Shown here piece after piece: positions 27,576 to 51,965 of a stretch of 64,000 nt of DNA. Position numbers and translations under genes: made by a program. Source of the stretch: an uncultured Gammaproteobacteria bacterium (lineage in GTDB: Bacteria; Pseudomonadota; Gammaproteobacteria; UBA9214). Each line of letters starts with the position of its first letter. Position 1 is the first letter of the stretch. The stretch lies in contig CAVVHS010000006.1 in the NCBI GenBank assembly GCA_963748215.1, forward strand, positions 928,001 through 992,000, read 5' to 3'. The notes below the pieces were generated by a model, which saw only the letters and a list, made by a program, of their open reading frames with translations, was not told the DNA's origin and did no database searches.

Positions 27576-28196
27576 ATGACTGCATTCTCCGTTTCGCGCT
27601 ATGAATACTGTCTGCGCAGCAGTGCCCTGCTGGCACTGGTCTGGCTGACCGGCGCTGTAGCCATCAGTGCCAGTGGCCTGCTGGCAGGCACCGAGGGCCC
27701 GCAGCGCCTGCTGATGCCGGGCCTGATCGTTCTACCGGTCGCCGTGTTCGCACTGGCATGGAAATCCAGCACAGACTTCCGCAGCTGGATGACAGGCATC
27801 GATACCGGCCTGCTGGTGATCCTGCACAGCTGGCGCATGGTCGGACTTGGTTTCCTGTTTCTGTATGCGCACGACGTGCTGCCGGGCCTGTTTGCATGGC
27901 TGGCCGGTGTCGGTGACATGCTGGCCGCGTTCGGTGCCATGCTCATCGGCAGCGCGTTACTCAGGGGCAGGCCGGTGCCACGTTCCACCCTGCTGGCCTG
28001 GAACAGTTTCGGCCTGCTGGACTTCGTGATCGCTGTGAGTGTCGGTACGGCCCTGCGCAGCAGCTATTTCGGTGGAGCCGTCTCAACCGACGCCATGGCG
28101 CAGTTACCGCTCAGCCTGGTGCCAACCGTCATCGTGCCGCTGTATGTCATCACGCACCTGGTGATCTTTTTGCAGCTGAGGGAAAGGAAAGCGTAA
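27576..28196 (+). CDS. Conserved inner-membrane hypothetical protein
   Basis: AGGAGG RBS; about 6 TM helices; HSWRMVG, AGVGD, WNSFGLLDF, PLSLVP motifs. Confidence 0.75.
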   Translation: MTAFSVSRYEYCLRSSALLALVWLTGAVAISASGLLAGTEGPQRLLMPGLIVLPVAVFALAWKSSTDFRSWMTGIDTGLLVILHSWRMVGLGFLFLYAHDVLPGLFAWLAGVGDMLAAFGAMLIGSALLRGRPVPRSTLLAWNSFGLLDFVIAVSVGTALRSSYFGGAVSTDAMAQLPLSLVPTVIVPLYVITHLVIFLQLRERKA

Positions 28197-28543
28197 TCTC
28201 GCGCACGACTACAAGGAGAAGGTGAGACCGGGAACCGGTCGAGAAGCTGGCCTGGGCCATGCAGGAGATACGAGTCCATGGATGGACTCGATAGAGCGAA
28301 GCAGGAGAAGGTGAGATCGCGCAACGATCGAGAGACTGGCCTGGGCCAGGCCGGAGCCGAGAGCAATGCAGGGAGCAATTGCCGAGAGACGCAGAGAAAG
28401 AAACGCCACAGAAGGCACAGAGCACACAGAGAAGGTCATTGTCATTCCCGTGCAGGCGGGGATTACATGTATACGTTCTGCGCCTGCCGTGATCCCTGTG
28501 GCAACAATTTGATTTATTTTGCGAGCTCTGCGACTCGCGCGAG
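28197..28543. repeat. Concentric nest of palindromic repeats containing four tiny inserts (2 x 48 nt, 2 x 42 nt)
   Basis: Outer IR tctcgcgca^gagacgcagag / ctctgcgactcgcgcgag; inner IR gccacag / ctgtggc; central gtcattccc hairpin; 180-nt insert block 28206-28385. Confidence 0.8.
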
Positions 28544-28576
28544 TGTCTTTTTCCGGATGTAGCACGCGCGTGATCG

Positions 28577-29722
28577 CTACTCCATCAGGTCGACATGAAT
28601 ACCTCGCGCCTCCAGGGCGTCGGCACGCGCAGCGATATAGCGCTGGAAGTCGGGCTGCTCCAGGTAGGCGCGAGAGGCAACATAGTCCATGGCGGACTGG
28701 GTGTGGAAGGCCTTCAGGTAGGCCTCGGTACGAAATACCTCCCGGTTGTCCGCATCGAAGAACAGCAGTGACGGCGCATACTGCACCTTCAGGTCCCTGG
28801 CCCACTCCGCGATGCTGCTTTTCCGGCCGTCCGTGCGCGACACCGGCGCATTCGACCACATGTCGAGCAGCACCACGTCGAAGCGCGCCAATTGCACGCG
28901 GCTTGCCGGGCGCTGCAGGATGTCCTGGTGCAGCTCATCGCAGGGTGCGCAGTCCGCCTGTTCGAACAGCACCAGCAGCGGCTTGCCGCTGTCACGAGCG
29001 GCCAGGTCGGTGGCGGCCGACAGGAAGGATGCATCGGTGTACAGCTTGCCGCTGGCCGGGGCCGGATCGACCTGTGCCAGATAGCCACGGAAGTCCGGCG
29101 CATCGCCGCTGTATTGCGCGCCATAGTCGAGCGCGGCATTGAACTTGTGCGGCGGGTAGTAGCCATTCAGTCGCAGCACAATCCTGCCCTGTTCGTCCAG
29201 GAACAGCAGGGTCGGCGTGAACATGACGCGCAACTGTTTTGCGAATTCCTTCTCGGTGGTGTGCATTCCCGCCAGATCGGTGACCTCGCGGTCACCCCAC
29301 ATGTTGATGGCGATCACGTCGAAATTGTCGCGCGTGCGCTGCACGGTATCGGCGAGGGCGAAATTGGTATCGAGCAGTTTTTTACAGTAGGGACAGCCGT
29401 CCTGGTAGAAATACAGCAGCACCCGCTTGCCCTGCGCCTGTGCCTCGGCGATGTCCTCGCGGATGTCGAGGAAGGAATTGGCGAACCATTCCGGCTTGTC
29501 CTCGTAACCGGGATTGACCATGCCGGCGGCCAGTTCCGCGACCGGCGGGTTCGCGGTCGAGGCCTCATGCACCGCGGCCTGCATCTCCGGTTCAGCGACG
29601 GCCGGGACCGGCGGCTTGCTGTCGCAGCCGGTCAGCAGCATGACCGCCAGCAACCATCCGGCAACGCCGCGCGCGACCGACACACCCGGCATGCGGACCG
29701 GACCAACCCCTGTTCTGTTCAT
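28577..29722 (-). CDS. SoxW-like tandem thioredoxin-fold lipoprotein
   Basis: Lipobox LLTGC, PEWFANSFLDIREDI, DGCPYC, FTPTLLF, second CAPC domain; start uncertain. Confidence 0.8.
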   Translation of the reverse strand: MNRTGVGPVRMPGVSVARGVAGWLLAVMLLTGCDSKPPVPAVAEPEMQAAVHEASTANPPVAELAAGMVNPGYEDKPEWFANSFLDIREDIAEAQAQGKRVLLYFYQDGCPYCKKLLDTNFALADTVQRTRDNFDVIAINMWGDREVTDLAGMHTTEKEFAKQLRVMFTPTLLFLDEQGRIVLRLNGYYPPHKFNAALDYGAQYSGDAPDFRGYLAQVDPAPASGKLYTDASFLSAATDLAARDSGKPLLVLFEQADCAPCDELHQDILQRPASRVQLARFDVVLLDMWSNAPVSRTDGRKSSIAEWARDLKVQYAPSLLFFDADNREVFRTEAYLKAFHTQSAMDYVASRAYLEQPDFQRYIAARADALEARGIHVDLME

Positions 29723-51674: not shown

Positions 51675-51965
51675 GGGGTCAGCACCCTTTACTCACTCGG
51701 CCGTCTATTGCAGTCCAGGTTTCGGTAAATATAAAAAGGTACTGACCACATCTGTCCAAAATACCCCCTCTCCCTCCGGGAGAGGTCTGGGGAGAGGGGA
51801 TCAAATCAAGCCAACCGCCTGATTTTCCATCGCCTCATCCTGGTCGCTCACGGCATCCTGCCTCCCGCGACACTTGTACATCCCTGTACATCGTCCTTCT
51901 CCCGGAGGGACGCCGACAGGGATGTCGGCGGTAGAGCAACGCATGGAGCATTTGCCGAGAAGGGA
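51675..51965. repeat. REP cluster: GGGGTCAG hairpin plus CCCTCTCCC-type pair, the second arm carrying two tiny inserts
   Basis: 51675-51749; 51764-51799; 51833-51965 with inserts at 51844-51893/4 (minus) and 51911-51958 (plus). Confidence 0.8.

Follow-up and report, generated by a model that had tools for sequence, protein, structure and literature searches.

How two 42-nt stretches with matching ends came to lie in one small intergenic repeat, each directly 3' of a GGA motif, is the question raised by the locus analyzed here in an uncultured gammaproteobacterium. The window, i.e. the whole stretch of 64,000 nt that was analyzed, covers positions 928001-992000 of contig 6 (CAVVHS010000006.1) of a genome of 3.52 Mb distributed over 9 contigs, with a G + C content of about 60% (GCA_963748215.1, referred to below as G000). 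The two stretches, C1 (28218-28259, + strand) and C2 (28307-28348, + strand), belong to a discrete unit with exact junctions, empty paralogous sites and a target consensus, CA-N-GGA|TG, which has been inserted repeatedly and independently and which occurs in several bacterial families. This unit is, with high probability, a mobile DNA insert that uses this target, and C1 and C2 are probably copies of a miniature, non-coding and non-autonomous insertion element moved in trans into such sites.

Two inserts in one host repeat and their copies across the genome

The spacer 28197-28576 separates two convergent open reading frames (ORFs), 27576..28196 (+) and 28577..29722 (-). When C1 and C2 are removed from 28197-28396, a single host repeat copy of about 115 nt is left, composed of four GGA hairpins. 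Its 5' part (28197..28217, +), directly 3' of the stop codon of the first ORF, consists of the 5' arm of hairpin 1 and its AGGA loop (CTACA-AGGA), where C1, a representative of the commonest subtype (inner hairpin GACCGG-GAA-CCGGTC), is lodged. The middle part (28260..28306, +) comprises the 3' arm of hairpin 1 (TGCAG), the unoccupied hairpin 2 (28271-28290, +; CGAGTCCA-TGGA-TGGACTCG) and the 5' arm of hairpin 3 with its GGA (GCGAAGCA-GGA). C2, which belongs to the GATCGC..GCGATC subtype and carries one G-to-A stem change, follows there in direct orientation, 89 nt from C1, and the 3' part of the host repeat (28349..28396, +) supplies the 3' arm of hairpin 3 and then hairpin 4 (28364-28383, +; GCAAT-GCAGGGAGC-AATTGC), in which GGA is followed by GC.

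The description of the two copies in the first-pass annotation proved accurate. Both measure 42 nt and have identical first 10 and last 12 bases, and both are placed directly 3' of AGGA (ACAAGGA before C1, GCAGGA before C2), with a boundary that may be shifted by one A, since an A both precedes the insert and closes it. The paired change in the inner stem, GACCGG/CCGGTC in C1 versus GATCG/CGATC in C2, was also recovered. Compared with its subfamily consensus, GATCGCGCAGCGATC, C2 displays a single G-to-A substitution that opens the sixth stem pair, and its 3' flank is GG where that of other copies is usually TG. The end pattern shared by the two copies was counted twice in the window, its expectation from window shuffles being 0.00. 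In an alignment with the host repeat copy of the closest relative (G045), C1 and C2 correspond to clean 42-nt gaps.

A strict-pattern search of the genome retrieved 41 copies, all of 42 nt and spread over all 9 contigs. When each end was used as a separate query, a second common form, 53-55 nt long, came to light, and a looser search yielded 77 candidates, 76 of them with enough flank to be scored, from which four chance matches (lengths 32, 52, 74 and 116) were removed, leaving 72 curated copies. Among the 76 candidates, 40 measure 42 nt, two 41 nt, 30 from 52 to 55 nt and one 93 nt, to which the four dropped matches are added. The unit is laid out as a conserved left module, GAAGGTGAGA, a covarying hairpin of free sequence and length, and a conserved right module, TCGAGARRCTGGCCTGGGCCA (TCGAGARR-C-TGGCC-TG-GGCCA), which holds a second small hairpin. 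In the long form, the tip of the inner hairpin is exchanged for ATTTTTA plus CGGGC-ATA-GCCCG. This inner motif occurs 28 times in its proper context and elsewhere only as degenerate copies or chance matches, and is therefore not an independent element. Other genomes carry forms of 31-45 nt, and the inner hairpin ranges from none (31-nt units) to at least 28 nt. Truncated, fold-back and tandem partial copies have their breakpoints at the hairpin tip. Tandem partial copies include a locus of another genome (L055) with three 32-nt repeats extending from the inner hairpin to the 3' end, and the 93-nt copy (contig 7, 56947-57039, -) contains three 19-nt repeats of the long-form inner hairpin.

Target site, occupancy and independent insertion

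A genome-wide pattern search with a tally of the upstream bases, as proposed in the first-pass annotation, placed 64 of the 72 copies directly 3' of GGA, a trinucleotide with a frequency of 1.5% per genome position, and TG comes after 67 of the 72. From 71 mutually dissimilar contexts of this and other genomes, the target consensus CA-N-GGA|TG was derived, with counts C(45) A(43) N G(61) G(61) A(64) | T(58) G(63). Some lineages present TTGA rather than GGA directly upstream of the insert. Since the two flanks mostly pair with each other, the insert usually lies in the loop of a short hairpin, as in cgaCTGCA-ggga-[insert]-TGCAGgagg or gaTGTACA-ggga-[insert]-TGTACAag. Within 133 non-redundant contexts preceded by GGA, the flanks form a contiguous stem of at least 4 pairs in 72 and have 0 or 1 pair in 30.

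Empty sites were searched by joining 15 bases from each side of a copy and comparing them with the genome by BLAST, allowing no gaps and at most 3 mismatches and requiring at least 8 bases on either side of the junction. At least one paralogous empty site was found for 50 of the 76 candidates, for a total of 111 distinct empty sites. The unit accounts exactly for the difference between filled and empty sites, without any target-site duplication. The occupancy of the host hairpins is uneven: hairpin 1 is empty in 22 copies and followed by an insert start in 21, hairpin 2 in 11 and 1, and hairpin 3 in 8 and 8, respectively. In other repeat families, the corresponding numbers of empty and occupied sites are 24 and 17 (B1), 15 and 15 (B2) and 14 and 7 (C). 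Hairpin 4, in which GGA is followed by GC within a 9-nt loop, is empty in all of its 40 copies and not once occupied genome-wide. GGA by itself is therefore not sufficient as a target. Among CA(N)GGATG sites, 35 of 191 in hairpins are filled versus 19 of 440 in non-hairpin intergenic positions, and the empty ones amount to about 1,840 in genes (crude gene calls) and 421 in intergenic non-hairpin positions. Inside the window, an empty host repeat of another family (51838-51900, -) presents two unoccupied GGA hairpins, GATGTACA-GGGA-TGTACA and GGCA-GGA-TGCC.

These data support the view that the element parasitizes other repeats. The first-pass annotation had depicted it as a hyperparasite of GGA loops, and the core of this idea stands, with a discrete nested insert whose 5' junction falls precisely behind GGA, in most cases in a hairpin loop, and numerous empty copies of the same hosts; the target, however, is longer than was proposed, and its extension to any GGA loop is not supported, in view of hairpin 4 and of the empty genic and intergenic non-hairpin sites. 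The further suggestion that Shine-Dalgarno sequences could be hit finds no support in the positions of the copies, since only one of the 72 has its end in the 20 nt that precede a gene start (crude gene calls). As for the CsrB/RsmZ-type RNAs also put forward as targets, no Rfam match to CsrB (RF00018) or RsmZ (RF00166) was obtained over the whole genome at E up to 1.

Clustering of the flanks, with at most 5 differences in 22 bases, defined 27 host contexts. The long (55-nt) form is present in 16 of them and the commonest 42-nt subtype in 6, and the single context gactgcaggga|tgcaggaggta houses at least 5 inner-hairpin subtypes. At several loci the flanks are chimeric, joining the 5' arm of hairpin 1 and the 3' arm of hairpin 3 of one host, which is the expected remnant of recombination between two inserts placed like C1 and C2. 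Contigs assembled from public runs break between 28239 and 28364, and one joint in such a contig omits exactly 42 nt at C2 (28305 to 28348), possibly by paralogue origin. The inserts break short-read assemblies at repeats and can be miscalled as small ORFs or RNA.

The host repeats themselves were also compared with relatives. A 700-nt spacer full of host repeats and carrying two inserts (contig 6, 221297-221997) measures only 10-200 nt between the same genes in five relatives, so that the host repeats are themselves recent insertions. On contig 4, inverted host-repeat copies with two inserts each (81264-81372, -, and 90703-90811, +) surround a 9.3-kb block encoding an argB-like kinase, phosphomannomutase, dut, coaBC and TauE, a possible inversion substrate. 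This segment was considered as a mobilizing element and rejected, having housekeeping genes only.

Structure, mode of movement and rival explanations

Whether treated as DNA or as RNA, each unit folds into a pair of small hairpins. In an alignment of 93 distinct units and their 14-nt flanks, of which 91 belong to other genomes and 2 to the window and which were collected through the 3' module alone, the 5' module is conserved at 90% or more at 9 of its 10 positions. The inner hairpin is 97% paired, with both-side changes in 4 of 6 pairs, and the flank stem displays both-side changes in 6 of 6 pairs with 64.7% of cells paired. The covariation score reaches 0.199; none of 500 shuffles (0.075 ± 0.007) attained this value, and sliding the partners gave no more than 0.073. 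Selection for the hairpin extends across subfamilies. The invariance of the second hairpin in this alignment results from the construction of the search, and a related 44-nt sister element, described below, carries TGCCC-TG-GGGCA in place of TGGCC-TG-GGCCA, a compensatory change.

Fifty distinct 15-nt inner hairpins comprise 269 Watson-Crick, 8 G-T, 8 A-C and 15 other pairs. Their loops are most often GAA (23), GCA (6) or GTA (6), 35 of the 50 being G-N-A triloops, which are especially stable in DNA. Relative to the neighboring genes, the 76 candidates are distributed evenly: 16 tandem sense, 20 tandem antisense, 16 convergent, 13 divergent and 11 inside called ORFs, and copies lie within coding sequence in either orientation. 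No Rfam family matched the window or 20 other loci (4227 families, E up to 10), the best overlap in the window being Transposase-2 RNA with 13.6 bits against a gathering threshold of 42.7 (E = 7.3), without recurrence on the element in the 20 loci. The even gene orientation, the equal numbers of G-T and A-C mismatches, the triloops, the coding copies on either strand and the lack of an Rfam match together favor an element acting at the DNA level.

In the preferred explanation, the unit would be integrated at the DNA level, with precision and no duplication of the target, at the A|T step of CA-N-GGA|TG, most often in the loop of a short hairpin inside dispersed repeats. A trans-acting enzyme would read the two end modules. 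The fixed short target, the lack of duplication and the presence of hairpins in place of inverted repeats lead to a tentative proposal, that this enzyme could work on single-stranded, hairpin-extruded DNA in the manner of the HUH transposases of IS200/IS605, RAYT (repetitive extragenic palindrome-associated tyrosine transposase) and IS91-type elements, a single-strand route that we consider possible but doubtful. These hallmarks are those given for HUH systems in PMC3333891, alongside established knowledge of IS200/IS605, RAYT and IS91. After insertion, copies would also multiply passively with their host repeat, and two inserts in one host may recombine, deleting the intervening DNA.

A number of observations weigh against such a mobile element. 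No element of the genome carries both end modules more than 130 nt apart yet within 6 kb, and no TnpB-type domain was found in it. Five Y1 transposase genes (PF01797) are present, each separated by more than 6 kb from the nearest copy and bordered by inverted repeats of another kind. Among 37 genomes of the genus, Y1 genes occur in 33 and Y2 genes in 24, and neither follows the copy number: G019 has 19 copies without Y1, G018 has 32 copies without Y2, and G010 and G023 have Y1 and no copies. IS200/IS605 elements show a replication-strand bias; its absence here (42 leading and 34 lagging, p = 0.42, from local GC skew) counts against the classic IS200/IS605 mode. The folding energies are modest in comparison with shuffles (z from -1.1 to -2.2 as DNA, -0.65 and -0.47 as RNA). 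RNA-library contigs hold copies in other flanks, without strand information, so that transcription is possible. No orthologous pair of filled and empty sites was found, the nearest relatives (94-95% identity, neighboring gene) having contigs that end at the repeats and more distant long-read relatives having a syntenic spacer without host repeats. The host repeat of G045 is in opposite orientation and next to the right-hand gene, i.e. a separate host-repeat insertion and not an orthologous empty site. Lastly, the C2 subtype is nearly confined to host hairpin 3, and part of the copy number therefore comes from amplification of the host repeat.

Other candidates for the mobilizing element were also considered. 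Y1 (RAYT-like) genes of about 255-270 codons are located on contig 9 (316317-316643, 333650-333976 and 71705-72025) and contig 3 (109441-109764), each with its own flanking inverted repeats GGGG(A/T)C(A/G)GAC..., and probably represent separate repetitive extragenic palindrome (REP) systems. The genome further encodes two IS110-type genes and three IS91-type Y2 fragments. A candidate autonomous element at 462357 of contig 8 was discarded as another repeat with GTGAGAC heptamers. The family to which it belongs (contig 8, 462354-462440, 474436 and 421231; contig 6, 201517) starts with GGAGAAGGTGAGAC, identical to the 5' module of the insert, and continues with GTGAGAC heptamers and CACGGAAGAACACGG motifs. 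An intact 2574-bp IS91-type element of a relative (G050), present in three near-identical copies (L185-L187) and encoding a tyrosine recombinase of 306 codons and a Y2 transposase of 410 codons, was rejected as a source because its ends are unrelated to the insert; its right end forms the hairpin ACCGC-GCGA-GCGGT, followed by TTAGTCC.

Comparison with known systems situates the insert between several of them. A conserved GTAG at the 5' foot of the hairpin is the rule among REPs, whereas the insert lacks such a head and starts with GAAGGTGAGA, with GGTGA before the hairpin. To our knowledge, a defined insertion site within other repeats has not been described for REPs. Insert copies are single, unlike the inverted doublets of REP doublets forming hairpins (REPINs), and no cognate RAYT is flanked by the insert, none of the five PF01797 matches lying within 6 kb of a copy. 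The insert otherwise resembles REPs and REPINs as a very small, GC-rich, hairpin-forming and non-coding sequence in many copies (72 copies of 42-55 nt, with two small hairpins each). A size of 21-65 bp is given for REPs in PMC3184786, and REPs and REPINs are described in PMC3333891 as thought to be mobilized in trans by RAYT (TnpA-REP), a single-strand HUH enzyme of the Y1 type.

Relative to the IS200/IS605 family, the insert is several-fold smaller than the ends needed by known members, its right cleavage point would be at the very foot of the hairpin, and the genome shows no strand bias, no same-ended element with tnpA and no TnpB-type domain. The similarity to this family, and to its gene-less derivatives (palindrome-associated elements), resides in an insertion site fixed 3' of a short specific sequence, in the lack of target duplication and in the hairpins near both ends that replace terminal inverted repeats. 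These family features are established knowledge (see also PMC3333891 and PMC10055086). The insertion sequences that target REP hairpins offer another parallel, as their specific target is another repeated palindromic element, which likewise makes them parasites of repeats; they are 1-2 kb long and have their own transposase, in contrast to an insert of 31-55 nt that encodes nothing. IS1397 is one of them. ISPpu9, ISPpu10, ISPa11, ISPsy8 and ISRm22 are reported as others in PMC1525189 and PMC12288879. The classical bacterial miniature inverted-repeat transposable elements (Correia, Nezha, Chunjie, RUP and BOX) are likewise described as short, non-autonomous, dispersed and sometimes located in genes (PMC3184786), while the ends of the insert, GAAGGTGAGA / CTGGCCTGGGCCA, are not inverted copies, its target site is not duplicated and its size is much smaller. 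A translational bypass insert, as in T4 gene 60 or the mitochondrial byps, was examined and rejected, as the take-off side would be GGA but the insert ends in CCA then TG, and most copies are intergenic. Bypass inserts have matching take-off and landing codons at both edges.

The strongest of the rival explanations considers the unit as an optional module of a mosaic repeat system, comparable to the modules of BOX or of bacterial interspersed mosaic elements, which recombination or template switching at CA-N-GGA/TG would shuffle without any dedicated insertion reaction. It fits the modular and highly recombinogenic nature of the hosts, seen in chimeric flanks, in tandem partial copies and in truncated or fold-back copies with breaks at the hairpin tip, as well as the failure to find a transposase and the recent arrival of host repeats (700-nt spacer versus 10-200 nt in five relatives). 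One subtype is, however, found in up to 16 contexts that share 6-8 bases, too little homology for ordinary recombination, and the junctions keep single-base precision in unrelated hosts, among them transposase coding sequence. For these reasons this explanation appears unlikely. A functional structured RNA domain is somewhat less likely again: the host stem and the variable and conserved hairpins would form a three-way junction, protein-binding or catalytic, the spread of which would be secondary. The junction strands are indeed invariant and the hairpin variable across several families, tandem G-A/A-G juxtapositions can be drawn at the hairpin base on reading the sequence, and the element is found in various flanks in RNA-library contigs. 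A bias in orientation relative to genes is nevertheless missing, G-U mismatches do not exceed A-C ones, the loops are triloops rather than the tetraloops usual in RNA, none of the 4227 Rfam families matched (E up to 10; window and 20 loci), the RNA folding z-scores are only -0.65 and -0.47, and some coding sequence contains copies in antisense. By eye, the sequence was also compared with the consensuses of the hammerhead and the kink-turn, and both readings were dismissed.

The host hairpins could alternatively be the functional part, as decoys for CsrA/RsmA, in which case the insert would split the binding loop and change CsrA titration, either as a regulator or as a parasite; we regard this as very improbable. 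Host repeats of one to four GGA-loop hairpins each occur genome-wide and resemble CsrA sites by the consensus of GGA in a hairpin loop, to which the empty hairpins ACAGGGATGT, CATGGATG and GCAGGATGC conform, and the genome has one csrA gene (contig 5, 13308-13463) and no detectable CsrB/RsmZ. The host repeats are, however, in either orientation to genes (as measured on the inserts), and the window shows no enrichment of the 8-mer CANGGATG (14 occurrences versus 12.35 expected). No paper linking CsrA with repetitive extragenic GGA hairpins was found in the literature search. Chance similarity or a single local tandem duplication, which the first-pass annotation named as the outcome that would overturn its reading and which the direct orientation of C1 and C2, 89 nt apart in one host repeat, could have suggested, has practically no likelihood left, given the 72 curated copies on 9 contigs, those of dozens of other genomes, and the assignment of C1 and C2 to different subfamilies.

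The miniature insertion element moved in trans is therefore preferred, and a bolder version of it may be formulated, although we hold it to be rather unlikely. The units would then constitute a new class of mobile DNA, the smallest known (31-55 nt, with two recognition modules round a free hairpin), encoding no protein and homing into extruded hairpin loops at CA-N-GGA|TG, for example by means of a conserved host enzyme or an undescribed hairpin-loop integrase. Such a class would have colonized repeat families and insertion-sequence genes across several gammaproteobacterial families and, as the loops resemble CsrA sites, may have rewired a genome-wide pool of such sites. If confirmed, the element would set a new lower size limit for site-specific mobile elements and provide a natural, sequence-defined hairpin-loop insertion system in which roughly 40 bases of cargo are combined with a target of roughly 8. 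The enzyme reading both conserved end modules could be a recombinase that is either new or repurposed. A mini-element residing within repeats and insertion-sequence genes represents a second tier of parasitism in uncultured Gammaproteobacteria of marine and sediment origin.

Distribution and related repeats

The 3' module (at most 1 mismatch) was retrieved in 22 of 24 other genomes of the genus, the highest number, 63, being that of G000, and in 1 of 16 genomes of other families, with a reversed-pattern control at 0 everywhere. A scan of public genomes, one per species, gave at least 120 loci. Among the matches listed, nearly all belong to uncultured Gammaproteobacteria with various order-level labels, and the 5' module is at the expected distance in 125 of 128. 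Of 400 other genomes sampled evenly across the class, 5 had exact matches, in four families and with 15 copies in one genome (reversed-pattern controls 0). In viral contigs, 5 loci matched, of which one is a real copy and four are chance matches in coding sequence. Three motif strings of the insert and its host were present in no paper found by a literature search that did not extend to supplements.

The 44-nt sister element, of which G000 has only 2 copies (contig 6, 837143-837186 and 844860-844903, both +), has the same architecture as the insert: AAGGTGAAT, GATGC-GCA-GCATC, AAGAGAGG and G-TGCCC-TG-GGGCA. In two broken IS91-type transposase genes it splits the part that encodes the C terminus, separating KRVF from DVETC, and adds a stop codon, while intact homologues in relatives read uninterrupted ...KRVFGIDIETC... 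and the closest relative, G045, has a sister insert at the identical position. In three other genomes (loci L024, L097 and L104), a 42-nt unit is nested in the sister element at AATTGA|TGC, and in a fourth (L107) a 42-nt unit lies in frame (14 codons), antisense, in an IS91-type transposase gene. The insert family therefore also invades insertion sequences.

In the same spacer as C1 and C2, another small repeat, GTCATTGTCATTCCCGTGCAGGCGGGGATT (28432-28553, +; hairpin CCCG-TGCAGG-CGGG), gives a weak FtrB-like Rfam match well under threshold. A related sequence, TCATTCCCGCGCACGAC, lies 5' of host repeats in other genomes.

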